Positions 5,921 to 63,856 of a DNA stretch of 64,000 bases are shown here, one piece after another. Position 1 is the first letter of the stretch. The number at the start of each line of letters is the position of its first letter. The notes under the pieces were generated by a model, which was not told the origin of the DNA, made no database searches, and worked only from the letters and a program-made list of their open reading frames with translations. The stretch is from Euglena gracilis. Taxonomy: Eukaryota. Position numbers and translations under genes: made by a program. Location of the stretch: assembly GCA_039621445.1 (NCBI GenBank), contig CP154954.1:43999847-44063846 (forward strand). Direction: 5' to 3'.

Positions 5921-6233
5921 GGCAGGGGTGGGACCAGGGAGGTCTGGGGGTCGGAAGGGGGGGCCCATGCCGGCAGCCACCTACACCACACCCACGGATG
6001 CGGTGCGCAAGGGGGGGTTGAGAGTTACTGAGTTAGAGTTCACCATTCTGGGGTGATAATTCCAACCCACGTACATCAGAAAAAGTGAAATTGTCTCCAC
6101 TCCGCCGGACGGCAAATACCTGTGCATAGATGTGGTGCCCGCCATTCAAATCTGCATGCTGGGGTTCCCAGTGAAGGAGAAGCACCACATCACAGCAATG
6201 GGTGTAGGCCATCACACCACATTCATGAATGTA

Positions 6234-6606
6234 ACCCCCCCAAAAAAATAAGCCCCCCCCCATAAATAAGACCCTTCCTGGCTGGTCCGAGCAAAAATCC
6301 ATGAAATGAACCCCCCCATAAATAGACCCCCCCCCTGCCGGCGCGAAGCGCTGGATTTTTGAAAAAATGGGGCATTTTTGGGGATATATCTGCCATTTTT
6401 GAACAATTTTCACACAACTCAGCATATTTTCTCCTATTGTCTGGCACGAAGCGCCGAATTCTTCGACAATTGGTATTTTGGGGGGCATTTTTTTGGACAT
6501 TTTGGGGTGTCCAAAAACTTTTCCAGCAAAAATCAATAAAATAGACCCCCCCCATGAATAAGACCCCCCTCGGGCTTTCCAGCAACCGACCCATAAATTC
6601 CTATTA

Positions 6607-6650
<44 letters not shown>

Positions 6651-6723
6651 TATATATGTATATACATATATATATATATATATGTGTATATATATATATA
6701 CATATATCCTATTATGGGGGGTT
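6234..6723. mobile_element. TA-flanked MITE (ACCCCCC...GGGGGGTT ends) containing a (TA)n microsatellite
   Basis: Absent at the paralogous site (attcatgaatgcaggtgtagtc, about 54450-54471). TA on both sides. Internal ccccataaataagaccc repeats. (TA)n at 6609-6706. Confidence 0.7.
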
Positions 6724-7759
6724 TAGGTGTAGTCATCCCACCCCCAATCCCACACCACAAACAGACGCATTCCACCCAACAAATAGACCCAAGCCCATTG
6801 CTTATCAATCTGCGGGTGGACACGCACCGTACTGGGCCTCACTGGGCAAACAATACCAATATTTCCGTCCAAATATCAGGAACCTCTAACACAATATGCA
6901 ACCCAGCCCATGATGCAACCGTCAATAGGGCCAAACGGAATGCCGGCACCCCACTCAACAACCAGGGTGCTAACCAGGAAGTTTCATTTTCTGACAAGGA
7001 AAAAAATGCCAGGACAGTGCCACCAGCTATGGCACTTGATCCTTCTAAAATGAAGATCTGTAACCAAATGCGGATTAACTGTTGGCCACAGTTAATCCGC
7101 ATTAATCTGTTAATCCGCCACAGTTTATTCGCATCCGCCACGAGAGGCACAGCCCTCTCGTGGTGGGAACTTCAAATCCTTCAGGATTCTGGCACTTCCA
7201 ATGGTGCGCACCCCTGGCAAACTCACAAGTTCACGCATTGGGGGAAGGATATGAAAATCCAATGTGGTCCAAAAGGCTGCCCCTGGACTCGCTGGCACTG
7301 GTTCAGTTGGATTTACCTCAAAACCGAAGGGCTTTTCAACCCTGCAGGAATCCAGCTCGTAAATTCGAAAATTTGGGCCGGCTGGAAAAAGCTGGGCTGA
7401 CCCCATAGTTGGGTTCGAAGAGGGTAAAAAAAAATTGTGTTTCTTGTTTGTTTTGTGTTCAGTTTCGAAAAAAATGCCCCCAAAAACTGCCAGTTATACA
7501 AAAAAAAAACCCGAAAATTGCCTGGGTGGCCTTTCACAAGCCACTTTTTGCCCATTTGGCAAACTTTTTGCACCTCGAAAGCAAGCAATGTGTTGCCGTC
7601 CATCCAGACATCCTTGGAAAATAAATAAAACTTGTCAATGGGGGGAGGGGTGTCCGAGGCTGGAAAAAAGGCTGCACTTAAGCAACGGCCCACCATCCAA
7701 AATGCCAAAAAAAGGGGTGAACTTGACCTTACAATTTTCGCCCTTGGACAGCCTTTTCA

Positions 7760-10130: not shown

Positions 10131-12221
10131 GGCGGCCCAAACGAAGCCGGGTTTAACGTCGATGTCTGAGAAGAGGAAGGCGGGATGGATGGGGGGTGGG
10201 GAGGGAGGGTTTTGAACTGGCTCCCAGGCAACAGCGTAGCACAGGATGCAAAACTGACGGTGTTGCATTTCTTTAATGTCCGGTTCCCCAGAGCCAAATC
10301 TCTCTGATTCCCAGAACGTGGAGAGGCAGGACCAAAGTGGTTCAAAAGCACCCCCCCCCCCACAGAGGGTGGGAGGCATGGATACTTGCTGAGGACCCCA
10401 GCAATGATTACATTGATTTGCGGACGACAACATTTCTGCATTCCTGGGATTGTTTCACTCTGAGAATGCTGGATTTCCAGGCTGACTCTCCGGCTGGGTG
10501 TTGTGGAAACAAGGCAGAAACAAAGGGGAATGGCCCCACAAAAACGAAGCAGGAAATTGTCGCACAGAGGCCTAACTTAGGAGGCATAAACTGCCCATGA
10601 TAAAATTGACTGAAGTGCCACCCAAAACGCCAGAAAAATACCGCAAAAAAGAGCCAAAATTCTCGAGTAACGCATCAGATTGAAAAATTTACACCCATTT
10701 TGGCTGCAGAACTAATGAAGCGGAAAACCGCTTCATTGATTTCCGAAATTTAATTTTTACCAGAATTACAGGTAAACGGGATCCAGCAGAAAAATGATGA
10801 AAAAGATACTAAAATCACAACCAACGAACGATGACCCACGTCCGTAAGACACAGAGGTGGGGAAACTGAATATATACGTAGCAATAACTGCATGTAAGGA
10901 AGACAGCCGCATACGAAAGAAAAAAACGGAAAATCTATAATGAAGCGTAATAACGCTTCATCGACACCCACAGCCGTGATATTCCGCGGCGTGTAACCGT
11001 TTCAGATGCAGCAGTATCGCATGCACTTTTAGGACACGCCTGATAAAAAGGAGGAGAGACCACGTGATCCACTCTGCCTTGGTGTCGGTTCTTCCTGTGG
11101 GCTGCCGGGGCCGCAAGCGGCGGAAGCAGGCACCCGGCAGCCCCGTGGCTCCCCGCCTTGCACTGACTGAGACAGAACGTTTTTCGGCTTAAACTGCATA
11201 CGGAGCGAACATATGACATTCGCGGTGCAGGTTACGGTTAAGTGGTTGTATTATACGCGCAACACATGCGTAGGTCCAGTTAAAAGCAGTAACTGAACAC
11301 GAAGGAAGCGGTTTTACGCTTTCTTTGCACATAATTGACAAAATTTCACAAAAAGGGGAGAGACTGGACCGGGTCCAATTCACCTCCCCGGACCCCTGAA
11401 CGGTGCCCGGCCGTCAGGGGTTCGGTTACGGCTTTTGCTGGACCAGGCAGGCGATCGTACAGCCCAGGCTCCCCACCCAAGGCGGCACACAAAAGTTACC
11501 TAGCATACGATGTGTCTTGTGAAATGAACTTCATGGTTCAATCAGACGTTAAACGGTTAACAGCATCGCGCACCGCATTGAAACCTTTTGTGGCGGGCCT
11601 CAGAATGAAGTGGTTGATTACACAGGAAGCGGTTTTACGCTTCATTTTAAGAATGTTCAATGTCACTCGCGAGGTACTTAACTGTTTACCGGTTGCATGT
11701 ACCATCAACAGCATAACAGTACTACAGTTAGTATCCACCTTGAAGAATGCGGTTAATGCGGTGGACTGAAGCCAAGACTGGTTCGCTGCTACTCGTTGTG
11801 CGAATACCTCATCGATCAGTACGTCACTTGAGCTGCGTTCATCGAGTCCGTGAGAAGTCCTCTGCAGACATGACCTTGACGGAGTTTTTATGTGGAGAGT
11901 CTGCAACAGGACGATTTTATTTCCCCAACAAATGAAAATGAAGCGGAAAACCGCTTCGCCTACAACTGGAATCGCGATGATGTCTGGTCATACCGAGTTT
12001 GTGACCACAAACTACTGAACAGTCCAATCCTCACGCATTTAGGTGTTTTAACTGAACGTGGTCTGTGGGCTGCCGCTGGCAATGGCCAGCAAAGGCCGTA
12101 TGTGGCGGGGACTGCCCACCCCCTCCACGTACTGTCTGTGGTTCCCTACCAGTGACAGCCTCCTTTTTGCTATCTCTGGAGTGAGCGGAAATCCGCTTCC
12201 TTCACACGTACCGCGACGTGT

Positions 12222-12508
12222 GGGTAGCGACTGTGATCACGCAGGCAGTCGTCTTCGTCAGCACAGAACATGTCTTTACTTTGGTGATCGACATTACTTT
12301 GGTGTTTGTTCTCTGGGGAGCTGCGGAGTAACATTGGCGTGGACAACTGCAGAAACACAGAAGACGCTTCTATACCGAGATCAAGATACTACATACAACC
12401 GCGACTGTTTGCGTTTCATTGCTGAGTCCGCAGGGTTGAGTAGTGACTGTGATCACCGCAGGCAGTCAAGCATACGTGGGTAGTGACTGTGATCACGCAG
12501 GCAGTCGT
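12222..12508 (+). repeat. Three ~30-bp direct repeats GGGTAG(C/T)GACTGTGATCACGCAGGCAGTC upstream of the transposase gene
   Basis: Copies at about 12222, 12439 and 12478. Homologous copies in element B at about 26272, 26430 and 26468. Confidence 0.8.
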
Positions 12509-12990
12509 ACTGAAAAAAACACGCAGTTATTTCAAATTGCGCCAGACTGGGAAGCGTTTTTGCGCTTCATAACAGAAAAGCCAGAAAAAATGCTAAAATC
12601 CAACCCTACATTTCTAAATCGCGAGGTTTCTAACCGACGTAAACTGGCAGTTGTACCACCAACCACATCAATTCATCACAAGTTCCCAGGTAATCGTGTT
12701 TTGGGAAGGATTTTACCTGACATCGCGCTCTGGATGCGCCCAATTTGAGTGAACAACGTCCTGTTGCACCCCCCGTTTCAAAATCAAAATACCCTTACGA
12801 AATAGCACCAGAAAAATACCACTACAGTACGTATGAAGCGTAAAACCGCTTCATATGTAACATTAAACGTAAATTTACGAAACATATTGTATTTGATGTT
12901 ATATAAACATGAGATCATACAAGGAAGCGGTTTTCCGCTTCCTGTCGTATCAGAATACAAACAGTATCTGTCCATTGAAACAGAGAACAC

Positions 12991-15894
12991 ATGCCTGCTA
13001 CTGCACAGCCAGTGGAACTGGTCCTGAACATTCGGGGCCTGCGTACGTATTTGGAACGTGGCAGGCCTCGTTCGGGATGGGACCTGTTTTACGATGCCTT
13101 CGTGGCTCTCCAGGCTGGTGCCCAAGCAATAGTGGCACTGTGCTGCATGGTGCGGCTAAACCGCCGTACGCGTCGCACAGTGGAAGCGGTACGGGAGGCC
13201 TACATGCGGTCTTCATCTCACCGTCCACGGTGGCTGGGACAGCTTGCCGCTGGTGCGTATGCTGTGTGGCGTACGCTGCATCGACAGGCCCAACCCCTCG
13301 AGGACCCCAGTGCGGCGGCCGAGAACACCCCCAGCTTGCGGGCGCTGCAGCAGCTTCCACGTGCAATGCGGCGAACGCTACGGCACACCGGCATCGTCGG
13401 CCGTACTGAGGTGCCGGTTGCAGCCCGTGCAGCAGTGGCGGCGCGGGACATCCTGGCCTCCCTGCGGAACCACCAGGTTGTCCTCTGGCTGGACAATTTC
13501 TGCTGGCTACGCTGGGGAACGGACCCAGCCACACCGAACCTGAGCCAGAACCTCACCGCCTTTGGAACAGTGCAGATTACAAGTTGTACAGAGAGTCGTT
13601 CTCTTCAATTACAAACGTTAATGAGGGTACACCTGGCGGTGCTGTGAATAACCGAAATGTACTCATTTTTGCAATGAAAACGCCAAGGAAGCGTAAAACC
13701 GCTTGCTAACGCGAGGATATGCATTTTTTGATTACATCTAACTACAGTAACACATCTGAATCATTACAAAGAACACACATGTGTGTAGCTTGCACTGACG
13801 TCGCTTCCTGCAGCTGGAGAACCTGATGCACCGCCAAGGCACGAGGACACGGTCCGTGACGTTCCCGGTGTCTCCAGGACATCCAGAGCTGAGTGACCTC
13901 ATCGGCAACGTAGAAGTGGTGGCGTCCTCGTGTTGTACCGCGTCGCCGCTGCTGCACCAAGCCGTGGGTCGCATACGCCGGATGCAGCTCACCGAGACCA
14001 GCATTCGGGTGCCGCTGGATGTGGCGCGGACCGACATGCGGTCACTGCAGTGGCGTCCTCTGTCGCTGACCGAGCAGGTGGTGTCAGCCAACCTGGACCT
14101 GCTGCTGGTGTTGCAGACGGCACGGTCACTGCAGCACCTCACGCGCCGCCAGACACCACTGCTGGTGGACGAGAACATCCACTACCGGTGCCTGCGGCTG
14201 CTGTACTCTGCATCAGCATCGCGGTACTACGTGTCCCGCTACCTGGCCGAGGTTCCACTGCTGTACGGCAGGCACGCGTCAGCAACCTGACTGTGCGGGC
14301 GTTCTTGTGCTGGACTGGAGGTCACTGGTGACCACACTGACGTCCGCCTGCGGAGCCACAGGACTGTACATGGAGAGTCCAGCCGCTGCCTGCGGTCATG
14401 TCCCATTCTGAGTCGCATGCACATGTGAAGCGGTACGCTTCCTTTGCCCCTCTCGTTCCTGCCCGACGGTCTGTCCTCACCGCGTGACATAGTAGTGACC
14501 AGCCTCTGACATTGTGACATGGGGTCGTGGTGGCCCCGGGTCCCTACCCCACCTGACGTCCAGCCTGCGCCGGGGCGACAGTCCAGTGCTGGCAGGCCAG
14601 AAGTGAGGATTTGTTCGTCCAGCCTTCGCGTCCGGGACCATTTGGTCCCTCATGTCCTGAATTTTACGCTTCCTTAATAAATTAACAGAAGTGTATCGGT
14701 TGCTACTTGCGCCTCAGCAGTCAGTTGACGACCAGAATGGATGACTGGACTCGCTCTGCAACAACAAGAGCTGAGCAACAGCAGCAACTCCGATCGTACC
14801 CGTACCAGCTGCTGCAGGGGCTGTTGAACATCCTGGTGTTCTATGCCCCTGCCTTGCTGCACCTGGGCCACGAGGTCCGTCAGTGTACCTGGAGGGGGAG
14901 ACCGGAGGACGAGGTGAAGGGTACCACGGCTCGGCTGGTGTTGCAGAAGTGCCTCCTGCTGATGATGCACCTGGAGCGCCTCATCAGCCCCGGAAGGCCG
15001 CCGTCGGAGTACCAGCGGACCATCTCCCTGTCCCTTCTGGGGTGGCAGGACTGGATGTCCCGGCTGCCTGGCTGCGTGTTCGTGGAGGAGGCCGGAGAGG
15101 CCATGCTGTCGAGGCTGTCCTCTGCCTGCAAGCGGAACCCCCACGTGACCAGCTTCGAGGGTACGCTGCACCTGTTCCTGAACCTCGGCGCCCCCTCCGG
15201 CGAGGCCCACCACAGCCGTGGCAGCCTCCGGAAGCAGCTGGTGCAGGAGATGGGCAGACGTCTGCGTGGCCTGGTGGGAAGCCCTGGTGACCGTCCGTTT
15301 CCGAAGAGGGTGGACAGCACCACCGTGCGGTGGCTGGTGGACCCGGAGACCTACCCCAACTGGATGGCACCAGATGTGTTGCCTATGCGGATCAGCACTG
15401 AGCAGCTGCTGCCCGTCTTGCGGCATTCCCTGCAGACGCTGGTCCGAGGACAACGTCTGGCAGCAGATGTCGAGGACTGGCTCAGGAGCAACGTGGGCTG
15501 TGTCGATCCGGATCTGCTGCAGGAAAGAGAAGAGGCCATGGCCCCGTTCTTGGCACGCAGACGGACCAGAGCCAACGCAGCGGACAGTGTTCTTCATCAA
15601 GCAGATGAAGCGGAAAACCGCCTCCTTGAGCCAGATGAAGCGGAAGACCGCTTCAAGGACAACGAAACTGCGCTGGAGGAGGTGGAGGCCTCAGGCGTGG
15701 CGGGTGACATGGAGGAGGGTAGCAGCTTGTACGAGCCGCCGGAGTCCCTCTACGAGCCGCCCGGCGACTTGTCGGACGGCTACGTGTCCGTGGGGGCCTC
15801 CGACGGATTGGACTGGCTGGGATCACTGCAAGGCAGTGATGAATCCGACGCTTCGTCGGATGTATCCGTGGCAGTGGTGTGTATCCAGCTTTAA
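12991..15894 (+). CDS. Putative DDE transposase (Academ/DUF6589-like motifs) of element A; spliced, with an indel-damaged middle
   Basis: Exons 12991-13564 (VVLWLDNFCWLRWG), 13803-~14400 (PLLVDENIHYRCLRLLY...VPLLYG, then many small deletions relative to element C) and ~14707-15894 (FVEEAGEAMLSRL, acidic tail). Lies inside a TIR/TSD element and is colinear with the copy at 58597-61866. Confidence 0.65.
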
Positions 15895-16253: not shown

Positions 16254-19200
16254 ATGGCTCCCAAGAAGCTGGCGAAGGCGGACACCACGGGACAGTCGAT
16301 CCCGAAGCTGCTGGAAGATGAGGAGATGTGGCTGCAGAGGGAACAGGGTTACATTTGTGGAGTGTTTTGGTGAATAAACAATTGGAAACCTTATCTGTGG
16401 CACAATTACGTTGAATCCTTCTTCATTTGCAGGCATTTTCCATTTAACATGCAGGTCTGTTGATCAGTCAAATACAAAATAATGTTAATTTCATATTGAA
16501 GCGTAAAACGCTTCATTGATGGGCATTGCAGATTTTTTATGGAATTATGGAATTACTTTCATCTAACCCTGCAGCCGGGCAGCTGGTCCTGGACGTTGAC
16601 CTGAGCCGAGGGCAAGTCCGGCGACCCCGGCAGGAGCACGTCAACGACCTCATCACCGAACTGAATAACAATCCACCGCAGGAGCTGGTGCTGACGGTGT
16701 GGCCGGAGAGAGGTGTCCACCAGCCCCCTCCATTCATATCGTGTTTGTCTATCCCGTGGTGCAAACCCCCTACTTTCAAATGGTTGCCAGATGGGAGTTG
16801 GTTTGCATTTTGAACACTGCAGAGTTGTTCATCTGTTTCATCATATGGCATTTCCCTATTGTGTCGTATGGGACAATGGACGTTTTCTGAATGTGTTCCC
16901 CTCTTTGCAGCTACCGGCAAGTGGGTGATACTGAGTGGTCAACATCGATACCTGGCCGCGTCGGCCATCGCCGATGCAGCCATCTCGCGGATTGCGCCGG
17001 GCCACCGCCAGCCTTTCACAGAGAGGGTTCCGGTGCAAGGTGGTTTGAAGGCCCCCAGTACACCAGCATCGTTCCAGCGCCAGCAGTGGCCGGCAGGCTG
17101 CAGGCCATGGACGGCAACGTCATGGACATGACTCTGGCGGACCGCCTGCACTGGCTGCTGAAGGAGGACCAACACGACCGGGATCTCGCAGAAGCCGAAG
17201 GAGTGGACTACAACCCCACCAAGACGGAGCTGTTGAAGAACGTGTACAGCAAGACGGGTTGCCGGGAGACGGTGGACGGTGCCGTGGTGTGTTTTGTGAT
17301 GGTGATGTTAATCAGCGATGCATGAATGCATATCTGATGCATGTGATGACATATGTAACACCTCTGTTTCAAATAAACTGTTCACAAAGGAAGCGTTTTT
17401 CCGCTTCGTTGTGTTTTCTCTCGCCTTTTTTCTTCACAGCTGCAGTGGGTGAAGGCCATGATCCCGGTGACGGAGTGGGTGCTGCAGAGTGGACCGGAGG
17501 CTGTCGAGGTGGTGAAGAGGATGGAGGTGCGAGGTGGGGACCGGGTGGCCCCGGGTACATTCAAGTGCCTGGAGGCCATCTACCACCCGGACGACTTCGC
17601 GGAGCTGGCCCAGGTGATGTTGGACGACAAGGCCAAGCCCACCAGCCAGAGGCTGACCCAGGCTACTTTTTTATCCTGTTGTTCAAAATAGATTTGGATT
17701 GACAATCTGTGCTATGAACCATAAAAATTGTGTTTTTGAAATACGAAGCGTAATGCCGCTTCATTCTTACATTCTTTGATTTTTTATGTTTGTTTGCTTT
17801 CTATTCAATAACAAAAAGTTGTCTGTAGTCAAGCAGGAGGCCTTCAGGCTGGTACGCCGAAGGACCTGGACATGGCTGCTGCAGCACCCGGAGCTGGATG
17901 CCGACGTTCTTCACCCATCAAGAAGTATGTGTTGTTTTGCCCTATGCAATCTCATTGCTTGACTGTGATGAATGCACTTTTCTCTGGGGCTGTCTACCTT
18001 TACATATGTATAGATTCAAATGAAACAAATTATTGCTATCTGATGACCAGATGAAGCGGAAAAACGCTTCACTCACTCACATTCCCTTTTCTTTTTTACA
18101 GAGAACCTGGCCCAGGTGGCTGCGCTGGAGACCGCCCTGCAGCCGGAGCACATCAAGGTGCCGATGACCGGGGTGAAGTGGAGGTGGTCGCCGGAGGCCC
18201 CCTGTGCGGGGCCTAACTGCTTGACATAAACAAACAATGTGAATGTTTCACTTGTTTATCCCTCCCTGTATGTGATGCATGACTGTGGAATGCACACCCC
18301 TCTCCCATCCTGTGTCACTGAATGATAGCTGAGCCCCGGCATTGGCCCCCTGTCGAGGTGGTGCGCCGCGCGCCGCTGTGGGCCGACCCCCAGTACGAGG
18401 GCCTCAGGCAGCGGCTGCTGGGCCCGGTGATGGAGCCCGCCGTCAAGGTGGGGGGCATCTTCGGCACGCTGGACCTGCACGGGATGTCCCTGACCGGCCG
18501 TGTACCGTCGACCCCCGGGAAGCCCAAGAGGCCGGAGGAGGAGGTCAGCAGCACGCAGGAGATCTCCACACCCGGCAAGTCCACGGCCAAGCGCGCTGCC
18601 CAGCCGGAGGCCCCGAAGACCGGCCTCATCCACGTGGTGCCCATGCAGTCCACGGACAACGCCTGGCCCAACGACCTCCGCCTGCTGGAGCTGGGGGCAG
18701 TGGTGGTGGAGGTGGAGCCCCAGCAGTTCGCCCTGGATGGCAGCCTGCACGCCGAGGTGGGCAGGACCATGATGCTGCGGGGTACGCCGATGATCGCCGT
18801 GGGTGCGGAGATCGACCTGCGGGACCTCCATGGGCGGCTGTCGGCGATGATGGGGAGCGAGCGGACGGTCTTCCGCAAGGACATCCTGATGTGCTTCAAT
18901 CCACCAACGCCGGACCTGGACTGGAACTTCGGGCGGCGAACTTTGGCGGTGTTCACCACGGACAACAAGCATAGAAAGGTAAATTTTATGTTTCAGTTGT
19001 TTTGAAGCGGAAAAGCGCTTCCCAATGATTTCGGATCTCGTTTTTTCATGTGTAATTTGTGGCATGCATATGAAAAGGTGCAACTGAGATTCCCTGTCTC
19101 TTCCGTTTGTGCCCCTCTCACGTAGGACCCCGTAACGATCACCCTGCAGGGGATGCACCAGGGCCCGGGTGACACTTTCAGTACAACGTTGTTGGTGCTA

Positions 19201-25342: not shown

Positions 25343-26066
25343 CACTGCATCTCAAGGTTTATTCACGTGGCACCGTTTCAAGGTTTTCACGTGGGTTTAA
25401 AAATAAAAAACTCTGTTTCTGTGGGATGACGTCCAAATGGCAGGCAAAGCAGCACATGGGGTGACAAATATCGCTTGGCACACTCCCCTGGTGCCTCTTA
25501 TGTTGTTTAATCGCGGGTGTGCAGGCCCTTGGCCACCTGCACAGCCGTCAAACGACGGACCATGCTGCCATACAGATTTGGGACCAGGTAGGAGGGGCCT
25601 GGAACCACTCCCCTTGGAGAGCTGTCCACAGCTCATCACAGGACGAAAAGCGCTTCCCAACAAGGCGGGAAGCAAGCCAAGCCCAGCAGTGTTCCACCGG
25701 ATTTAAACCGGGGGACTGCGGAGGCCAGGGGGTCAGCAAAATTACACAGTTCCTACTCAAAAAGTTCATGGTGGAATGGCTGGTGTGGGGAGCCCTGGCT
25801 ATTGCTGTGGCAAACGGTCGTGGGACAAGTGCGGCATACGCCAGCACCTCTGCCCGGACACGCCGCCTAAGCTCACCGAAAGCGTGAGATCTGGTCATTG
25901 TGTGACTGGGGAAGGAACAGGAACCACAAGGCACGAAATATAAGTATTTTGGGACTGCAGGTTCAGCTTCCTGCCAACAGAAAGTGACCGCCACAAATTT
26001 TTTCGGTTTTTCATTTTTTTCAAACCTCAAAACGGTGCCACGTGAATAACCTTGAGAGACGTAGTG
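25343..26066 (-). mobile_element. Deleted Tc1/mariner (IS630-like) element nested in element B
   Basis: About 40-bp TIR (cactgcatctcaaggtttattcacgtggcaccgttt / aaacggtgccacgtgaataaccttgagagacgtagtg). TA on both sides. Empty site visible in element A near 12010. Confidence 0.88.
25548..25880 (-). pseudogene. C-terminal fragment of a Tc1/IS630-type DDE transposase
   Basis: WPPQSPGLNPVEHCWAWL...ELWTALQGEW matches the WPPxSPDLNPIE motif of Tc1/IS630 transposases. The N-terminal part is missing. Confidence 0.85.
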
Positions 26067-27867
26067 TAAACGGTCCAAACCACACGCATTCACGTAGTTT
26101 ACCTGCATGGCCTTAGTGGGCTGCCGCTGGCTATGGTCAGCAAAAGCCGCATGTGGCGGGGACTGCCCACCCCCTCCACATACGTCCTGTGGTTCCCTAC
26201 TGGCGACAGCCAACTTTTTGCTTTTACTAGAGGCAGCGGGAATTCGCTTCGATATGAAGCCGCACATATGTGGGTAGCGACTGTGATCACCCAGGCAGTC
26301 GGGATCATCAGTATGGATTGTACGCAGTTTCTTGGCAGATGATAGCTTTCGGGTGTACTGCTGAGTCACATTGTACTGGGCAGCTAAAGAAAGATGGGAG
26401 GAGAGTGTATATACCGAGATCAAGATACTGGGTAGTGCCAGTGATCACCTGGTCAGTCCACAGGGTAGGGTAGTGACTGTGATCACGGCAGGCAGTCATG
26501 CCCCTCCGAGTAATGTCAGTGATCACCCACGCGGTTGTACCAAAAAGAACAGACAATAATTTCAAAATGAGAACACGTGGCATGGATTCAGGGTGGTGCA
26601 TGGTTATGCCACTTGTTGGCCCCGGATGTTCAGTTTCATCAGGGGTTTCACATCCTTGCGATTTTTAATGAGGGCCATTAGAGTCCCTTTGGGTCTTTCC
26701 TTATGCTTTTTTCTGGTTTTTCAAAAAGTGCAGCGTAAAACTGCTTCCAATGACATTTCGTATTTTTTGCGGGTGTGTTTGTCGTCTGTTAATCCGTTCT
26801 TCATCCTTACATGGCAGTTGCATTGCCCTGGGGCCAAGGAAGTCCACAGCAGGATCATCCGCCACGTAGCCCTGAACGTCTCCAGGTTCATCCCGGAAGG
26901 GACGGAGACCGCCCCCGCACCGCCGACGGAGGGGCGGCTGGGACCCGAAGGAGTCCAAGTCCAAGGAGGCCAAAGAGTCCCAGGACAAGCCCAAGGAGAA
27001 AGAGTCTAAGGACAAACCTGACAAGAAGAACAAGGACACGCCCAAGAAGGGCGCCCGGGGAAGCAGTTCCGCCGGGCGGCCGGCATACAGGGAGAGGCGC
27101 AGTAGCCTTTTGATCATGGTGTTTGCTTTATTATGTTCTGTTTCATTGTATTCAGTAATTGTTCTTCATTTCTGAGGAAGCGTTTTTCCGCTTCGTTAAT
27201 ACAATCTGAGAAATCCATCCACCTTTTGCACACTGTCTTTCATGGACAACGTCTGTGTTCATATTAACCTATAACCTCCCTTCAAGAATGAGCAAGACAA
27301 AGGCGTCTCAACGAAACTCCGGTTTCTGTCTGCTCTGTTTCCAGTCTGCGCCACTCCCTGATGCCGAGGAAGCGGTCCGCCCTGGAGAACATCAGGAGAT
27401 GGTGGTTGACAATGAGTGAGCGGGCGGCTGCGGCGGCCGTGGTGGCAGCGGGCGGCTGGTGTCGCCGGCGAGGGAGGGACAAGCGAGGCCCAGACCCAGA
27501 CCCAGACCCAGACCCAGACCCAGACCCAGACCCAGCCCTCAAACACCCACACTGCTTCGCGCACTTCACATGCCTATTTCGCTGTGTCTTTTCATTTGTG
27601 TGTGTCTTTGGCATGGCTGCGGAACTCGGGGCCTCGGGGGGTTGTCGGATCTGTCACATGAGTGCCTTGGCAGGAGTAGAAATAGATCATACACTCTGTT
27701 TTATGACTCTGCTGTGGAATACATCACAGCTTTTCAATTATGTTCGCTGAGACTTTTATGTACGTTGTGTGTTTGATGCTTCAGTGTATGTGGTGAGTTT
27801 CTCTATTCAAATGGTTCAGCGTTGTTCTTAGTTCGATGTGTGCAGTTTGGGACCCTGATATGTTTAA

Positions 27868-30196: not shown

Positions 30197-54184
<23,988 letters not shown>

Positions 54185-56069
54185 GGCGGGGGCCTGGTTA
54201 GCCTGAGGGGGAGGGAGGACTGAGGGTCAGAAGGGGGGGGGGGGCAAGCCGGCAGCCACCCACACCACACCCCCGGATGCGGTGCAGGGGCGGGGGGAGA
54301 CTCACTGAGTGCGCATGCAACCGTCTCCACGCCACCAGACGGCAAGTGCCTGTGTGCGAATGTGGTGCCCGCTATTCATATCTGCTTTCTGGGTTTCCGG
54401 TGAAAAAGAAACACCACATCACAGCAATGGGTGTAGGCCAGCACACCACATTCATGAATGCAGGTGTAGTCCTCCCACCCCCAATCCCGCACCACAAACA
54501 GACGCATTTCCCCCAACAAATAGACCCATTGCTGTATCTAGCAACAAAAAGGCCTATTGCTTATAAATCTGCGGGTGGGCACAAGCCATACTGGGCCACG
54601 CTGGGCAAACAGAAAAAGTGGCGGCCAGAACCTCGCCTCGTGCTCGCCCACGCACCTTGCACACACAAACTTGCACCCACACACGCCCATATATTCATAT
54701 CTTCCTGTTGCACCTGCATTGCAGTTAGAGAAGCAAGTCCGAAGCACAACCCCAACTGGTTCATCCACGGGTGACACTTCATTGGGACTTCATTGGCAAA
54801 AAAAAGGCAAAGCAACACACAAGAACGTTTGGTGGTTCAGTTTCTGGGTTAGTGCACCAGAGCGACAGAGTGAGGGCTGTTCAAAGCATAAATACACCAG
54901 GAGAGGCCCACAGACCTGGCAAGGTTTGGAGAAATTCACCGTGTACTCCACCAGTGGAGCACACCATTTGGGGGGGGGGGGCAAATGTGATCACTGATGC
55001 ATGAAGTTTTGGCCCCTTATCCCAAAATGGCAATTTTGGTGCCGAAGGGCTGTTTTTTCCCAAAAAGGAGCAAAAGAGTGATAATTCCCATCTACCTGCA
55101 TCAGAAAAAGTGAAATCCACCACTGACGTTCATCATATAGAAAGAGGGAGGAAGTTGCAAAATGACTCAGCAATCTCTGAGAATATCCCCCCCCTTGCGG
55201 AACTGTCCGGGAGGTTGCTGACAGACAGCCAGAAATGCTTTTCTGAGTGATCACTGGGGAGGAGGCAAGCTCAAAGGCTTGCTGAAAAGAAATGCTGTGT
55301 TCCCCTTCATAAATCCCTGTGAATGGAAGCCCCCCCCATTTTTGACCATTGGACAAATGGAAGCCCCCCCCATTTGGGACACAGGAAAATGAAGGGGGGA
55401 AACCTCCAAACAGAAGCCCCGCCCCTCCGTTTTCGACCAAGGGTTCAAATAGAAGCCCAGGGGGGAAGGAACTGGGTCAGGCACCCCCCAAATCGAAGCA
55501 ACGTCAAAATTAGTGCAAAAAAAAGCCCCAGAAGGGGCAGGACAGCGCGATTTCCCAAAGCGATCTGGAAACAGCAAACTCATATCCGGTCAAAGGGGAT
55601 TCTTCGACTGTTCTTTTCCCAAAATGAAAATAATGACGACTCAACATGCTATTTGGCGAATTTGGCCCTGTGGGAGAGGCAACGGTGGTTCCTTCAAAAC
55701 ACACCCATGCTTATAAACCCCGTCCCAAACATGGGACCCCTCTGGCTTAGGCGGCGCGAATTGCCCAAGCAATTTTTGCGTTTTTTTTGACGTTTTTTGG
55801 CTGTTTTAAAAACACCCAAAAGGGCACGAAATTTTAGGTTGAGAGGGGTGTGTGGCAGCTTTGAGCAAAAATTTAATGAAAGTGGTTTTGCGCGGTATTC
55901 CACACAACGTACACTACATGATGCAGAGGTACGTAAAAACAGGGGTGTTGACACCCCTGTTACAGGTACCAGAAAAGTACTGTATTGTAACGTGTGTAAT
56001 ACGTGGGTGTATATTGGTGGTACGTCTGTTTCCACACAGTGTGTGAGGTGAGGTGAACAACGCAGGTGT

Positions 56070-59000
56070 GTGCGGATTACCGCACACAACAAACACAACG
56101 ACGTGTGATACAGGGGGGTGTTGTGTGTTTGGTGTGACGTGAAGGAAAACTGTGAAGTGTGGTTTAGGCGGATAACCGCGTAAAGAGAGCGTAGTTGTAT
56201 TTGTGCAGTCCAGGCGGAAACCCGTGTAACCTCCGAAGGACAGACCGAAGGCATTTGATGTTAGGCGGGAATCCGCACAACCTAACAGAACGTTGTGGTG
56301 GGTGTGTGGGCCCGATTACGTGAGAGGACGGATGCGTTTGCTTAAGGTGTAGATAAAATGGTGGGGAGGCCGGGGGGGACTGGGGGCAGCGTTCGTCTGT
56401 CGCACCACACCCCGACACATCCCGTGCCCTGGCCGTCACCGGGACGGTGGCCCAGCCGGGGCCGGTGACGGGGGGATCTGGTGCGTGTGTGTGTGTATCC
56501 GCCGGGGGTGGTGGTGGGCCAACGTTGGCTGCCCCATCCCCCTGAAAGAGGGGGCGGTCCTCTCCCCGGCGAGCCTGCCTGTGTAACTCCCCGGCCTGAA
56601 CGGAACGAAACGGCACGTGAATGACGTTACGGTACGTCTCTCCGCGACTGCAGTGATGACTGGTCGCGAAACGCGACGCAGTGTTGTTGTTAGTGGGGGC
56701 AGAGGGGTGTGGGTTACCAAACAGATGCACAACGGTCTGTGTGATATTGAAAAGCCAACAGGATGTCTTGTGCGGGAATCCGTGCAACACATTCCGAGTG
56801 TACCAGCTGCGTGGATAAAAAGACAGTGAGGAGCCCGGGTGGTCCTTTGACCTCTCCGCACCGCCGGGGCAGGTTGCCCAGACCTCCCCAACGGCGGTGC
56901 GGTTGCGGCGTTTGCGGACCAACGCAGCCGGGGCGACGACGCCCGTCCCGGACTCCCCCGACCGACTGGGTAGGAAAATGGAACCTGGGTGTTTGCGTTT
57001 CACGTTTGGGACGTTTGGTGGTACTCAACTGCGTAGGGGACCGGTTTTCCTCGCGATCGGAATGCGTAGGGCACCGGTTGGTTTTCTCGGTTGTGCGCGT
57101 TGAGGTCTGGTGAGGGAGAGAGGCTGTGCGGTGTGGTCACACGTCGACGGCGACGGTATGTGCGGTTTTCCGCGTACAAGAACAGACCAGTGTGTAAGGC
57201 GTAAGGCTCATTGCGTTGCACGCACGTCCGCCCCTTCCCTACGCTTTTGCCCAAGATCTGGATCGCGAGGCCTTCATTTGGTGTAACCGCCGGCGTGACC
57301 ACCAACAGTGGTTTCGCGAAAGTTATACAGTCCAAGTGCGATCTCCAGAGACAGATGCTGGGCAAGTGGCTGTAACGGCCTCTTGTGGCCGAGCTCCCTG
57401 GGACCGCCCACCCCAGCGGGCAACGCCACTGGTTCCCCGGCCGGTGCGGTCACTTGCCTACTTTTTATCCCCGCGTGCACGGATATCCGCTCAGGGGCCG
57501 TGTATGTATGTACACGGCGCGTGTCCGTTTTGTATTGTTTCTTTTCTTCTCTTCTGTGGTTGGTGTGAGGGAGGCTAAACGAAGCGGAAGCTGACAGCAG
57601 TTCGGTACACCCCCGGGGGGGTTGGTCCGGGCCAGCGAGGGGACTCAGTGCACACGCTCAACTGGGCCCCACGATTGCGTGCTGTACACCTCCCCCGGAC
57701 ACGACTACCTGGGACCCTTTCGCGACTGAGGGTGGTTGGTGGTACACGACTGGTTTACGGTTCCTGTTTCGTTCGCGAGACAAATCCGTAGGGTGGACTG
57801 ATGCTCCCTCAACACCACCCAAAACAGGCCACTTTCTACGACGTGAAGTTCCGGTTTGTGCGGGAAACCGCGCAAACCGGAACTTCAGCTCCCAGACCAC
57901 GGTGTTTTCCCAGGGGTTACGTCGCAGTGGTACATCCCGTTCGCGAGGGGGTATAAATCGCGAGAATTCCAACATCCGCTTGTACCACTAAACACCCTGA
58001 ATCGCGACAAGGTCCCAGGTCCTTCGGTTTTGGAGGGCCGTCTTACCTGGAATCGCGCTCTAAATTGCGCCGTACGGACCGAACCGGGAACTGTTGCCCC
58101 CGCCGGCTTCAAATTTGAGCACTCTGCACAGCAGCCTTCCATGATTTACACGGGAACCCGCACACCAGCGCAGAATCAAACACAAACAGTTCTGTGGTGA
58201 GGCACTAACGAAGGAAGGACAAGTCATTGTGATGTTCCCACCAGTTGTGCGGAAACCCGCGTAGAAGCGGTCTACAATGGCTGCGGTGTGTGGTATAACA
58301 CGGTGCGCTACGATGACAGATTTGAATCAAACACAGTGCAGCGTTGTGCGGATTCCCGTGTAAAGGACTGAGCCCTTGTCAGCACGATGACACTGCTTCA
58401 GTGCATTCATACGTGTGAATCACGGTCAAATCTGTGCATACGTGAGTGGTCTTTGTCCATTCACTGAAAACACTGCTCAGCATGTAAAGTAGGTCTGTGT
58501 ACATTGTGTCCTCACTGAAATACACGCATCCTCTGTTGCGCGGTAATCCGTACACCCTCATCTCCGTTGTCTCAGACTGTGCAAAAATAAAAAAAAATGA
58601 CCTCCACGTCTGAGACGCTGGTGTTGCAGCTGGACCAGCTGCGGGGGTACCTTGCCGGCGCCCCCCCGGCCGATGGTTGGGCGATCCTGGACGACGCCCT
58701 CCGAAGAGGCCACCTGGGAGCCCTCAACCTGGTGGAGACGGGCCTGGCCGTCAGGGCCAACCGCCGGTCCCGTCGCAGCCTGCGGGAGGTGCGGCGGGAG
58801 TACACCCAGCCCCCGTCCGAACGGCCGATGTGGATGGCCCGCTTCACCGACGGGCTGCTGGCGCTGTGGAGGACGCTGCGACGGCTGGCCGTGCCCTTCG
58901 GTGAGGTGGTCACGCCCGCGGCCGCCCTGGCCCCCGCCCCGGCGCAGCAGACGCTGCAGGACCTGCCCCGCGCTACCCGTCGGCTGCTGCGGCCCGCCGG

Positions 59001-62000
59001 TCTGGTGGGCCCCACGGAGGAGCTGGTGCGGGAGCGGGCGCGAAGGGCCCGGGACGCGGTGCTGCGGGCGTTGGACGGCCACCAGTGTGTGCTGTGGCTG
59101 GACAACTTCTGCTGGCTGCGGTGGGGCACGGACCCCGCCCAGCCCAGCTACAGCCGCAACGTCACCGCCCTGGGTTCAGGGTGCCTACTCTGCCTTTCGG
59201 GTCAAGTGGACGTGACCCGCTGTGCACGACAGGACCAACGTGTGTGGTTTTCCGTCTGAGAATGTAGCGTCTTCCAAAATGAAATCACTGATCACCCAAG
59301 TGAACCCCGCAAGTCGGGTTGAGACAATCAGTGACGATGGATTACTGCTCGGACGTTATCCCTTGGGATACAAAAATCTGATGTCCTCTAAGTAGTACAC
59401 GGGGCGAAGAACAACAGGTTTGTGCGGGTTTCCGTGTAAACACGACCCTGTTGGTTTGCACGGAAACCCGCACACTTTGGGATGATGTCTGCGTCCACTG
59501 GTTGACTTAATGAGCAGGCCCTCTGTGTGGTGACTGCTGCAGATCGACCCCCTGCGGACTCGTCAGGGCACTTTGACGCGGTCCGTGACGTTCCCCGTGT
59601 CCACGGGCCACCCGGAGTTCGGCACGGTGGTGCAGCACCTCCGCTGGGCGGCAGACCTGTGTCTGCAGTCGGCGAAGAAGCTGCACCAGACGGTGCGCGG
59701 CCTCCACCGGGCGGAGCTCTCGGTGGACAACGTCCGCGTCCCGCTGGACATGCAGCGGGACGCGATGCGGTCGCTGCGGTGGAGGCCCTTCTCCCTGACC
59801 GAGCAGACGGTCAGCTCGAACCGGGACCTCCTCCAGCTCCTGGAGACCGTGCTGCAGCTGCAGGCGCGGTCGGGCCGCCAGCTGCCCCTCCTCGTGGATG
59901 AGAACATCCACTACCGCATCCTCCGCCTCCTCTACTCGGCCCCGGCGCTGCGCTTCCGGATGGGGCAGCACCTCGCCAACGTCCCCCTGCTGTACGGCAT
60001 CTGGCATGCCTACAAGCACACGGTGACGGTGGTGTACCGGGCGTTCTTCCCGGTGCTGGCCCACCTGGAGGTGCCGGTTGGCGCCGGGGGGCAGCCGGCA
60101 GCTGACGACGTCCCTGCGGTCGCACCGGAAGGTGCTGTACATGGAGAAGCTGTTCGCCAGCCTCCTGTTGACCCGGGCCGACGTGCTGCCACAGCCAGGG
60201 TGACCACTGCTCTTGACCAGGGCTTCCAGGCTTCCCCTGGTACTTCGGGCCAATGTTTGTGCGGTTATCCGCACAATCATCTCGTGTGTCAGTCGGTGTC
60301 TTCTCTCTTCTCTCTCATCTCTTCCATATGTCCGACGCAATATGTCCGCTTTGTGCGGAAACCCGCGTGAATGGCTCTGGTGAACGATCACGCAGTCCAA
60401 CGTGTATCACGTTTCCCGCAGTGGTGCACGTTACAGCCTCTCTTTTCTTCTAGTGGGTGAAGACGCTTCAGAAGCCCATTTGTCACTCTGGCGCTAACTG
60501 GAGGATCGTCTCCGGGAGGAGAGCCAGCGCGTGCACGTCTCCGCCCCCACTGCGGCCGACGCGTACGGCCCGCAGCTGCTCCTGGGGCTGCACCGCCTCC
60601 TCACCTTCTTCCTGCCGGCCCTCCTCCACCTCGGCTTCAAGGTGCGGCAGTGCACCTGGCGCGGCCGCCCCGACGACGAGGTGAAGGGGGAGACGGCGCG
60701 GCAGGTGCTGGAGCGCTGCCTGGTCCTGCAGGCCCACCTCGAGCGGGCCATGAGTCCGCATGGCCTCCCCTCGGAGTACATGCGGACCATCTCCCTGGCC
60801 CTGCTGACCTGGCAGCCGTGGATGTCCCGCCTGCCCGGGTGCGTCTTCGTGGAGGAGGCCGGCGAGGCGATGCTGTCGCGCCTGTCGGGTGCCTGCCGTC
60901 GGTCGCCGTACGTCACGGACTTCCGGGGCACCCTGCAGCTGTTCCTCAGCCTGCCGCCGCCGTCGGGGGCGCCACACGCCAGCCGGGGTTCCCTGCGGCT
61001 GGGGCTGGTCGCCGAGATGGCCCGTCGGGTGCGCCAGCTGGCGGACCACCCCGAGGGCCGCCCCTTCCCCCGCCGGGTGGACGCCACGCGGGTCGCCTGG
61101 GTGGACGCCTCCGAGGTGGAGTTCCCCCGGTGGGGGTCCCCGCCCATCCTGCCGGAGATCGTGGACGTCCGGGCGCTGGAGGCCCTGATGCGGACCTCCC
61201 TCCTGACGCTGGTGAGCGGCCGGGCGCTGACCCCCGACATCCTGGTCTGGATGCGGGAGAACGTCGGGCCGGTGGACCCCCAGGAGTTCGTCCGTCGCCA
61301 GCGGGCGATGGACAACTTCCTCCAACAGCGACAGCGGCGGCGCCGCAGCCCCACGCCCCCAGGCGGAAACCCGCGCAGGGGCGGCGGCCCGTGCGGAAAC
61401 CCGCGCAGCAGCGGAACCTGCAGCGCCGGGGGTGATGACGGCTGCCGAGGAGTCCCCGGCGGAAAGTCGCGTGCGGTTCACCCCGGAGGAGCCCAGTTCC
61501 TCCACGGCCGTGGCGGTGGTGCAGCCGCCGGTTCAACCGGGATGGCCGGCGCTGGAGCTGCCCGAGGCGGAGAGCCTGTACGAGCCGCCCAGTGCAGCGG
61601 AGTCGCTGTACGAGCCGCCGGGCACGCTGTCCGAGGGGTACGTCTCCCCGGCGGCCTCGGACGGCCTCGGCAGTCTGGGGGAGCTGCTGAGCAGCCGCCC
61701 GACCTCGTCCAGGTCCTCCTCCTCAGATGAGGACCTCAGTCTGTCCCCAGCGGCGGTGTGTCCCTGCCGGACCCTGGTCTTTGTACGTGGTCATGAACCT
61801 TCCTGTACATCAGGGAGTCAGCTGGAGGCCTTCAGAGGGAGGGTGAAGGATCGTTTCAGAACATGACGGGGGTGGCGGGCGGGTTTCCGTGCAAAAGCAT
61901 TCCCCTCCCAGGCAAAAGGGGGTGCTCTGCGGAGGTTGTTGGTGAGTGGTTACTGTTGTGTTTCCTTGAATGACAATTATTTTTTGATTGAACTCACTGC

Positions 62001-63856
62001 CCCAGATTTTCTTCTTATTCATACAGACAAAAGTGCTTCAGTGAGGACTGTTTCTGACCTCAATTTCCTTCATTTTGGGTGTTTTCATGCCGTCTTTTTT
62101 TTTAGACCTCTGATGGCAGCCCGGAAGCCCTTGGCGCCCACCCGCTCGGCGACGGAGCTGGTGTCGAAGACCCCGACCCCGCTGGCCCGTGTCCGGAGGG
62201 GGTCTGGCGCTGGCTTACATGATTGCCGTCTGTGGAGGCAGTCTTTTTTTTTTACCGTACAACCGTACAAGCGAGGGTGCTTGACGGTTTCTCATTCCTG
62301 GGTTGTTTTGGAAAGTGCAGGGGAAGTCACTCCTTTTTGGACGACACTCACTGAGTTTGTTTCAGTGTCATTCACGTCCTTTGGTTTCTACAGCTGTGCG
62401 GGTTTCTGTGCAAACCGCTGAGGGTTGTGTTTGGCATACGCGTGGACCAGACATCCTGTGGTCCTGTCTGTTCAGAAGTTTCAGCTGAAACCCTGGAGAG
62501 CCAGACAGCCTCCGCGCCTCGACGTGCTGGTGCTGGACGAGACCCTCACGCGAGGGCAGGTGCGGCGGGTCGAAAAGGCCCATGTCGACTCCCTCGTCAA
62601 GGCGTTCACGGAGAACCCGCCGGTGGGGGCCCTGAGCTTCGTGGTGTGGCCGGAGCAGGGTGTGTGTTTTTTGTTTGCGTGTCTGTGCCTATCAGCATGT
62701 GGGCCAGTCTGTCTGTATCCATGAATGTTGCAAATGGCGGATGCTTCCCAAACGACTGAATAATGAAATGTACCCCGTTTGTAGTGTTTTTTTTTTGGAA
62801 GGGGGGGATGGTGGGGATCCAGGCGGGAATCTGTGCACCTGAAAAAATCTCAATTGCACTGTTCTTCTCTGTTGTCACAGCGACGGGGAAGTTCGTCATC
62901 CTGAGCGGGCAGCACCGCTTCCTGGCGGCCACCCAGGTGGCAGACGCGGCGGTGGCCGACACGCGGCCGGCGCCGCAGTGGACCGAGTGGTTCAACTGCC
63001 ACACGGTGCTGGGGTCGGCCAGCCTCGAGGAGAGGCAGCGCGTGGCCGGGAGCATGCAAGCCCGGGACGGGACGGTGAGGGAGATGTCCCTCAGCCAGCG
63101 GGTGGAGTGGCTGGAGCGGGAGGTGGAGCGGGAGCGGCCGGGGGCGGTGCCGGACGGTGAGGCGGGGACCGCCGCCCGCCTGATGGTGAACCGGACGGAG
63201 CTGCTGAAGCGGGTGTACGTGAAGACGGGGTGCACGGAGGCGTCCCACGGCAAGATGGTGTGTGCGCGGATTTCCGTGTGCGTCGTTTTCTATTTGATAC
63301 AATGCACGGATTCCCGCCGAGACGGCCTGCCTCCTTTCTTTTTTCTTTTCAGAAGGAGAGTGCGCGCACGCTGTCCTTTGAAATTCCAGCCATCACATAC
63401 ACATCACTCACTCCCCCCCCCTTAATTCCCCCCCCCCTCCCCTCTCCCTCACCCGCTCTGTGCAGGACAACTGGGTGAAGGCGATGCAGCCGCTGGCGGA
63501 GTGGCTGCTGCACAGCGGGCGGCCGGTGGTGGAGGCGGTGCGGGCGCTGGAGGCGCGCCCCGCGACGGGGGTGGCGGCGGCGCTGTCCCCGTACGCGTTC
63601 AAGGCGATCGAGCAGCTGTACGACCCGCAGGACTACGTCGCCCTGACGAGGGAGATGCTGGACGAGGCGGCGAAGGCGACAACGGTGCGGCTGGGTCGGA
63701 TGTCCATTTCACTGTGTCTGTTGGAACTCTGCCTGCACTTTCACACAGACAGACGCACACACGCGCACGCACGCAAGGAAAGTATGATCATACGTGGACA
63801 GTTGAACCAGTTTTACTGTTCGAGTGGATACAGAGACAGTACGCGGTAAACCGCAC
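56070..63856. promoter_or_regulatory. Dispersed ~14-bp palindromes YGCGG-N4-CCGYR (about 20 copies) throughout element C
   Basis: Copies at about 56071, 56168, 56214, 56265, 56771, 57160, 57859, 58149, 58248, 58346, 58540, 59423, 59459, 60260, 60354, 61363, 61393, 61880, 63266, 63306 and 63842. Confidence 0.65.
58597..61866 (+). CDS. Putative DDE transposase (Academ/DUF6589-like) of element C; spliced, with apparent frameshifts
   Basis: Exons 58597-59173 (CVLWLDNFCWLRWG), 59532-~60195 (PLLVDENIHYRILRLLY...VPLLYGIWHAYKH) and ~60460-61866 (FVEEAGEAMLSRL...SLYEPP...GYVS). Frame changes near 60110 and 61345, inferred from homology to A. Confidence 0.68.

Follow-up and report, generated by a model that had tools for sequence, protein, structure and literature searches.

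Two related genes in a 64,000-nucleotide stretch of the Euglena gracilis genome (GenBank assembly GCA_039621445.1, contig CP154954.1, positions 43,999,847 to 44,063,846 of the forward strand; this whole stretch is hereafter called the window, and positions are counted from its first letter) probably encode the transposase of a multi-copy euglenid cut-and-paste DNA transposon. The nearly whole gene is here referred to as copy C and the decayed one as copy A; the transposase would be of the DDE (Asp-Asp-Glu) kind with an RNase H fold. This assignment is carried by the homology of the two copies to each other and to a large family of proteins, by the predicted fold, by the conservation of single residues, by the many copies of the family and by the palindromes that accompany them. 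Euglena genomes consist mostly of repeats and are poorly annotated, and giving a name to one abundant Euglena element aids their annotation. The putative transposase lineage is missed by curated libraries and comes with host-specific introns and unit-specific palindromes; its predicted fold and order of motifs are of a known kind.

Two paralogous gene copies in the window

Copy C lies on the + strand at 58597-61866, with an ATG at 58597 and a stop codon at 61864-61866, and is broken into four reading-frame pieces. Comparison of the window with itself identified copy A, also on the + strand, at 12991-15894 as its paralog. The two copies share 55% protein identity over 682 aligned residues, and tblastx of C against A returned collinear blocks with 68% identity over 181 amino acids, 56% over 154 amino acids and 57% over 88 amino acids; judged by their sequences, this likeness is far beyond chance. 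A profile made from 26 relatives picked out seven pieces that belong to A or C, with E-values between 2.4e-86 and 2.2e-7, all other frames of the window lying at E >= 0.44, and by this measure A and C are the only two copies within the 64 kb.

Copy C contains VLWLDNF (Asp codon 59101-59103), PLLVDENIHYR (Asp codon 59897-59899), VPLLYGIWH (Trp-His codons 60002-60007) and FVEEAGE (Glu-Glu codons 60852-60857), followed by an acidic tail in which AESLYEPP occurs twice at about 61570-61620. In copy A, VLWLDNF, PLLVDENIHYR, VPLLYG and FVEEAGE are present together with SLYEPPESLYEPP, and the sequence becomes unreadable directly after VPLLYG, where no IWH follows. The motifs hhWLDNF, PLLVDENIHYR, VPLLYG and FVEEAGE had been pointed out for both copies in an earlier sequence-only reading, produced by a model from the letters of the window, as had the continuation IWH in C and a duplicated SLYEPP in the acidic tail of each copy; all of these were recovered at the places just given.

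When the introns and the one-letter correction proposed below are applied, copy C reads as a protein of 829 residues that keeps 22 of the 22 residues that are invariant in the family. Copy A keeps 19 of these 22, having lost W342, H343 and E385 via several deletions and a stop codon. The acidic residues D, D and E-E are present in both window copies.

Predicted fold and catalytic core

An AlphaFold2 model of one relative (P0002), based on a 100-sequence alignment, reached a predicted local distance difference test (pLDDT) score of 86.8 and a predicted template modelling (pTM) score of 0.79. Its elements follow one another as strands 155-164, 178-187 and 268-273, helix 280-297, strand 303-305, helix 307-318, strand 336-338 and then helices, i.e., an RNase H-like core of the order b1-b2-b3-a1-b4-a2-b5 ... 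a4. D160 lies within strand 1, D306 right after strand 4 and G339-I-W-H342 right after strand 5, and E511/E512 are located at the start of helix 512-527, after an all-helical insertion of about 170 residues. In this predicted structure, D, D and E-E stand at the canonical places of a DDE triad with an insertion domain.

Comparison of the model with solved structures placed transposases and integrases at the top. With Foldseek against the PDB, ranks 1-14 were taken up by the transposases of Hermes and the P element, with probabilities of up to 1.00 and a best E of 2e-3; no row reached E 0.001. Structure alignment against 48,161 representative chains placed the P element first (Z 10.0, 290 aligned residues), with Tn5 (Z 8.2) and Hermes (Z 8.1, 281 aligned residues) behind it, and next came integrases, the retroviral ones at Z 6-7.7, as well as Sleeping Beauty (Z 7.1), ISCth4, Mos1, Transib and RAG1. 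The first 35 rows were all transposases or integrases, and model residues 133-555 were spanned. As a predicted fold, and together with the copy-number pattern described below, the name transposase is well supported.

The sequence-only reading had likened the order DN ... hhD ... GxxH ... E to the RNase H-fold DDE core of Academ/DUF6589-type transposases. Its first half holds up, since an RNase H-like fold was found in the P0002 model and the acidic residues are conserved in 26 of 26 full-length family members; the DUF6589/Academ label is no more than a lead. Exon 1 of copy C, folded alone, gave an N-terminal helical bundle of about 130 residues (pLDDT 79.9), and no clear structural match was returned for this domain (best Z 4.6, to Cmr5; Foldseek E 0.94).

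A large family and its invariant residues

Six full-length intronless relatives of 754-811 amino acids were found at E 1.4e-76 to 1.2e-36. Among 1.84 billion cluster representatives (clusters at 50% identity), 370 clusters matched at E <= 1e-3; tighter cut-offs left 180 (E <= 1e-10) and 37 (E <= 1e-30). A profile search of 5.8 billion proteins yielded 23; each belongs to the present family, has no Pfam assignment and no informative name, and none pointed to DUF6589. Likewise, none of the relatives listed with annotation had a Pfam family or an informative name. Pfam itself gave no family for the four exon translations, the six full-length relatives, 100 members or the exons of the neighbour gene. 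Stray Pfam rows (Stealth_CR1, E 0.18; a Pro-rich family, E 0.0018), occurring in one or two members each, were taken as chance, as were the only matches of the family profile to PDB chains, NSUN4 and SMC1A, at E 0.33-2. A search of 2.9 million viral contigs turned up no relative, and metagenome contigs provided five short loci with intronless relatives, the flanks of which are too short for neighbours or element ends. In the literature library that was searched, no earlier description of the family, or of a similar Euglena transposase, was found.

An alignment of 26 full-length members, which share 23-56% identity with its first sequence, contains 22 columns without any variation. The invariant set includes D162, N163, D257, D307, G340, W342, H343, E517 and E518, and the motifs to which invariant residues belong include W-x-D-N (its D-N), R-x-P-x-D, L-L-V-D (its D), G-x-W-H and E-E-x-x-E-A. 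A large family in public data without a name or Pfam family can now be placed, by the predicted structure and the invariant catalytic residues, among the DDE cut-and-paste transposases.

Exon-intron layout of copies C and A

Nonconventional introns of Euglena have been described as following the code 5'-N3-C-D-G ... C-H'-G-N5-6, then a purine (PMC12501133). On this code and on homology to the intronless relatives, among them P0001, the following layout is proposed for the two copies:

58597-59173, + strand, copy C exon 1: N-terminal helical domain, strand 1 and W-L-D-N; open reading frame, tblastn to P0001 amino acids 7-186
59174-59531, + strand, copy C predicted nonconventional intron 1: GTT-CAG ... 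CTG-TGTGGT, then G; fits the Euglena code; palindromes at 59424 and 59460
59532-60192, + strand, copy C exon 2: RVPLD, LLVDEN and YGIWHAYKH; one surplus G in the run 60086-60091 shifts the frame
60193-60495, + strand, copy C predicted nonconventional intron 2: AGC-CAG ... CTG-GCGCT, then A; palindromes at 60261 and 60355
60496-61328, + strand, copy C exon 3: helical insertion domain, FVEEAGEA and C-terminal domain; tblastn to P0001 amino acids 402-669, profile E 1.2e-85
61329-61449, + strand, copy C frame-change zone: palindromes at 61363 and 61393, 30 bp apart; the frame differs on either side
61450-61866, + strand, copy C last exon: acidic tail, ESLYEPP twice and GYVSP; open reading frame, tblastn to P0001 amino acids 722-760
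12991-13564, + strand, copy A exon 1: open reading frame and tblastn; donor GAA-CAG in the same codon phase as in C
13565-13802, + strand, copy A predicted nonconventional intron 1: GAA-CAG ... CTG-ACGTC, then G; fits the published code
13803-14269, + strand, copy A exon 2: ends at VPLLYG; tblastn to P0001 amino acids 187-340
14270-14721, + strand, copy A decayed stretch: region of IWHAYKHT...HLE...RKVLYMEKLF deleted in places, stop codon at 14288-14290, remainder intron-like; from the DNA alignment of A and C
14722-15894 (start approximate), + strand, copy A last exon: insertion domain, FVEEAGEA, C-terminal domain and acidic tail; open reading frame, profile E 2.4e-86

By sequence, two introns are well supported in copy C and a third is possible. 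Removal of intron 1 yields NVTALGLLQIDPL, which matches NVTALAILDLDAL of the intronless relatives, and this first intron has the same position and codon phase in copies A and C. Intron 2 is bounded by a pair that fits the strict code, has a length that is a multiple of three and leaves ADVLPQLEDRL, of the same length as GAVIGHLEARL of P0001; with the base C, which is found at 60497 in all contigs, the junction codon becomes His, as in P0001. Between the two introns, tblastn switches frame in copy C between 60070 and 60099, and at 60086 the contigs of four public runs have one letter fewer (depth 2746 of 2746, 179 of 179, 524 of 531 and 26 of 26). As nearly all public contigs are without the surplus G, it is either private to copy C or an assembly error. 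For the zone 61329-61449, a third nonconventional intron (CGA-CAG ... CTG-CCGAG, then G) or a real frameshift may account; the code-fitting pair restores an open frame there, such pairs being common by chance in the G+C-rich DNA of this region. Past this zone, L-Y-E-P-P is invariant in six of six close relatives. In copy A, tblastn found no counterpart of P0001 amino acids 341-423.

Other explanations of the breaks were set aside. A GT-AG intron at the first junction was rejected because no in-frame GT donor suits both copies, and a strong-looking acceptor at 60452-60453 because it runs into a stop codon. The view of copy C as a pseudogene, its frame broken three times, was mostly rejected: two of the breaks are accounted for by nonconventional introns and one by the surplus G, and the zone 61329-61449 remains. 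Both introns of copy C start with CAGGGTG and finish with C(T/C)CTG, and by eye about nine of their first 12 bases can pair with their last 12 (59177-59188 with 59514-59525; 60196-60207 with 60479-60490). A predicted nonconventional intron whose position is shared by two old paralogs provides dated examples for the origin and change of this intron class.

Copy number and mobility

Sequence of the family is present in many public data sets. Fourteen public runs from 14 studies hold 0.47-0.50 of the words sampled from a 3.35-kb stretch of copy C, and in four runs the contigs that match this stretch at >= 90% identity number 781, 243, 499 and 67. In one of these (run X1), 286 contigs match at >= 99%, 222 at 95-99% and 273 at 90-95%. 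Hundreds of variant contigs imply that the family is multi-copy. In the contigs of the four runs, the exon parts are 10-40 times deeper than the intron parts. Damage of the kind seen in the two window copies is what old transposon copies usually show.

Several points weigh against a mobile transposase. First, the run kinds ("DNA?") are guesses, contig depth is not the same as copy number, and the contigs come without positions, so that dispersal is not visible in them. Second, inverted-repeat scans of both units, dominated by microsatellites and with the C unit leaving the window, revealed neither terminal inverted repeats nor the boundaries of an element nor a target-site duplication, so that copy number alone argues for mobility; for a conserved upstream block (57980-58114 in C, 12651-12784 in A), no partner was found either. 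Third, the A and C units are collinear over more than 5 kb, the downstream gene included, and this could also be brought about by segmental duplication. Fourth, both copies are damaged, copy A being without the Trp-His and copy C having the extra G and the unexplained frame change at 61329-61449. Fifth, none of 15 joints examined (of 17) in the contigs of the public runs is a spliced joint at a predicted intron; the intron model and expression therefore rest on protein homology and the published splicing code. Lastly, the best structural matches score moderately (Foldseek E 2e-3; Z 10), at 8-10% sequence identity to solved transposases, and no curated library names the family.

Private palindromes and the downstream neighbour gene

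Each of the two units contains its own short palindrome, and a second gene lies downstream of the transposase gene in both. The relevant features are:

10720-15651, no strand, copy A unit palindrome GAAGCGG-wwww-CCGCTTC: six sites, at 10720, 11943, 12185, 12927, 15610 and 15640
56072-63854, no strand, copy C unit palindrome TTGTGCGG-N4-CCGYRYAA: about 21 sites, all outside the predicted exons
62425-63849, + strand, downstream neighbour gene of C: exon pieces 62425-62724, 62763-63250 and 63460-63849, from open reading frames; holds VILSGQHRFLAA

The palindromes of the two units share a build of 7-nt arms and a 4-nt spacer and differ in sequence between A and C. In its generic form, GCGG-N4-CCGY, the palindrome is found at 52 places in the window, compared with a mean of 5.3 and a maximum of 12 in 30 shuffles. 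Near the 3' end of each transposase gene, two palindromes of the unit's own version are paired 30 bp apart (15610/15640 in A, 61363/61393 in C); the pair at 15610-15651 is in frame in A, and the pair at 61363-61404 falls within the frame-change zone in C.

Palindromes of comparable build accompany relatives elsewhere. The metagenome contig L001 has CGGCGA-GGCC-TCGCCG four times, L002 has GGTGTT-TYTC-AACACC four times and L004 has three near-copies of one palindrome; in 200 shuffles per contig, the same arm was seen at most once. These palindromes, with 6-nt arms and a 4-nt spacer, are found upstream of the start codon, past the stop codon and sometimes within the frame of the relatives (L001 79-2553, L002 247-3214, L004 263-1292). 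A unit-specific palindrome of a common build suggests a self-recognition system.

The neighbour gene starts about 0.6 kb past the transposase stop in both units. That of C is paralogous to pieces downstream of A at 16520-17691, by tblastx and blastn collinearity. Its motif VILSGQHR[FY]LAA looks ParB-like by eye; Pfam gave nothing for seven exon pieces, and a protein search with the main exon gave nothing at E <= 0.01. As palindromes also occur beside relatives on contigs without a visible second gene, the N-terminal domain of the transposase is at least as good a candidate for their reader as the neighbour protein.

Further palindromes were noted in the window. Three more of the copy A type (24862, 28184 and 28511) lie 9-13 kb beyond A, with no transposase piece near them. 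A third class, GGCCGCGG-CATG/CCGG-CCGCGGCC, is found within G+C-rich tandem arrays at 38329-38769, 43532-43763 and 53515-53778. Upstream of C, a foldback at 57707-58020 has 40-nt arms that are 85% complementary and is centred on the palindrome of the C unit (57845-57886); in copy A, a single arm of this foldback is present, at 12652-12709.

Alternative explanations

The copies might belong to a gene family that descends from a transposase and was domesticated for a host role, e.g., programmed DNA cutting or a DNA-binding factor, and that multiplied via segmental duplication. Copies A and C, which lie 45 kb apart in the same orientation and share both their downstream gene and the position of an intron, would fit such a history, as would the repetition of pyrophosphatase pieces in the same window, the lack of element ends and the retention of catalytic residues across very diverged members, which is a sign of long-lasting selection. 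However, each of four runs contains hundreds of variant contigs (90-100% identity), which points to a copy number far above that usual for a host gene family, both window copies carry disabling damage, and unit-specific palindromes recur beside relatives on unrelated contigs, as would be expected of mobile elements that recognise themselves. Domestication is therefore considered unlikely, although it keeps some weight.

A second possibility is that the protein is not a cut-and-paste transposase but some other nuclease or integrase with an RNase H fold, e.g., the relic of a self-synthesising element or of a virus that had integrated. Retroviral and retrotransposon integrases do match the core at Z 6-7.7, and giant endogenous viral elements with many recombinase genes at their edges have been described for Euglena gracilis (PMC12455990). 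These integrases, however, align only over a core of about 130 residues, whereas the alignments to P element and Hermes are the longest (281-290 residues) and include the insertion after strand 5. The lack of any relative in the viral contigs, the lack of a viral hallmark gene in a Pfam scan of 132 of the 185 long frames of the window and the host-type nonconventional introns common to two old paralogs further reduce this to a very improbable origin.

Finally, the motifs could be non-catalytic and belong to an inactive RNase H-like scaffold with only a structural or DNA-binding role, which is conceivable insofar as catalytic activity is predicted only from sequence and model, yet hardly credible given that D, D and E-E are canonical and invariant in 26 of 26 members and that inactive scaffolds usually lose these residues.

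Proposed layout and mechanism of the transposase

For the preferred assignment, a DDE cut-and-paste transposase, a protein of about 750-830 amino acids is proposed. It would begin with a helical N-terminal domain (about 130 amino acids, without a recognisable fold) and continue with the catalytic core, in which the first Asp is predicted on strand 1 (W-x-D-N), the second right after strand 4 (L-L-V-D-E-N) and G-x-W-H right after strand 5, the position of [C/D]-x-x-H in P, hAT and other superfamilies. A helical insertion of about 170 amino acids would follow, then the Glu pair of F-V-E-E at the start of a helix and a C-terminal domain; the protein would end in an acidic tail that is disordered and contains L-Y-E-P-P. 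By analogy with the P element and Hermes, the three acidic residues would hold two metal ions, and the protein would cut the element ends and join them to a new site. The palindromes are putative binding sites for the element's own protein, which may be the N-terminal domain of the transposase or the neighbour protein. Catalysis, mobility and the identity of the palindrome binder are inferred from the observations above.

It is also conceivable, as a distinctly speculative extension, that this transposase is the autonomous mover of the small inverted-repeat elements with 8-bp duplications that act as nonconventional introns in Euglena. The predicted fold is nearest to P element and hAT, the two solved types that make 8-bp target duplications. 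If the idea were true, the transposase would drive the seeding of this unusual class of introns, and the palindromes would be the address by which each sub-family knows its own copies.

Other features in the window

The window, with its microsatellites and split genes, has a eukaryotic look. Inorganic pyrophosphatase (PF00719, best E 3.9e-14) is represented on the - strand by exon pieces that appear at least three times, which points to a repeated gene or to segmental duplicates. Their positions are:

1939-2424, - strand, pyrophosphatase piece
4828-5487, - strand, pyrophosphatase piece
33910-34710, - strand, pyrophosphatase piece
36303-36734, - strand, pyrophosphatase piece
43081-43485, - strand, pyrophosphatase piece

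A frame at 25551-26444 on the - strand has a weak match to DDE_3 (Tc1/mariner-type endonuclease; E 6.2e-6, just under the Pfam cut-off) and is probably the remnant of another transposon. A DNA repeat of 84-94% identity at 54001-54620 and 5743-6864 lies upstream of both copies and is unrelated to the transposase units. Short telomere-type arrays, like ACCCTA or CCCTAA, are located at 52778-52871 and 43807-43849.

Comparison with known transposases

The best structural match of the P0002 model is the P element transposase (PDB 6P5A; Z 10.0, root-mean-square deviation 5.8, 290 residues, model residues 138-545; Foldseek probability 1.00). In both, the RNase H-like core is split by a helical insertion between strand 5 and the Glu helix. 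For the P superfamily, [C/D](2)H right after strand 5 and an insertion between strand 5 and helix 4 are described in PMC8230255, and the spacing is similar: the His and the Glu follow the second Asp by 36 and 205 residues in P0002 and by 39 and 228 in the P element (D303, D339(2)H and E531, as given in the same source). The two differ in several respects. Sequence identity is 9%; no THAP domain was matched by Pfam, and exon 1 is modelled as helices only; the His of the x-x-H motif is where it would be expected, and the position of its Cys or Asp is taken by an invariant Gly (G-[IV]-W-H); and an extra long helix lies between strands 2 and 3, so that the first and second Asp are 146 residues apart as against 73.

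Hermes and other hAT transposases (PDB 4D1Q, 6DWW and 8EDG) form the top Foldseek rows (E 2e-3, probability 0.99) and also have a helical insertion after strand 5, and structure alignment gave Z 8.1 over 281 residues. They are set apart by 9-10% identity and a Foldseek root-mean-square deviation of 15-16 Å, and in the six relatives and 100 members there was no Pfam match to a BED finger or to the hAT C-terminal dimerisation domain.

Red-algal Plavaka/PAG3 elements offer a parallel outside the catalytic core: for these DDE transposons, an accessory gene (PAG3) whose protein has a ParB-like N-terminal domain is described, with inverted-repeat arrays beside it, and the protein is suggested to bind its own element (bioRxiv 10.1101/2025.02.11.637652). 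A conserved neighbour gene with a motif that is ParB-like by eye and private palindromes are likewise found here. The palindromes of the A and C units differ in being scattered in introns and intergenic DNA with no tandem arrays; the Plavaka Pfam family had no match, and no 2OG-oxygenase domain was seen.

Academ elements come with a helicase (AcademH) or an XPG nuclease (AcademX) and make target duplications of 3-4 or 9-10 bp. Neither a helicase nor an XPG family turned up in 132 of the 185 window frames of >= 130 amino acids or in seven exon pieces of the neighbour genes, a scan in which short exons could be missed. The Pfam model of DUF6589 (PF20231) matched none of the four exon translations and none of the six relatives at E <= 10, and none of 100 members at E <= 1. 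In contrast, a language-model search with P0002 returned DUF6589 for 30 of the 30 nearest clusters (score 0.93, 196 of 256 features shared with the first), at a recognition value of 1519, which is below the level where such matches are reliable; with DUF6589 left out, no other named cluster was near. The link to DUF6589/Academ is a lead only, and the chances that it reflects true remote homology are about even. If it does, that fungal family of unknown function and the present one would mark a wide and old lineage of transposases.

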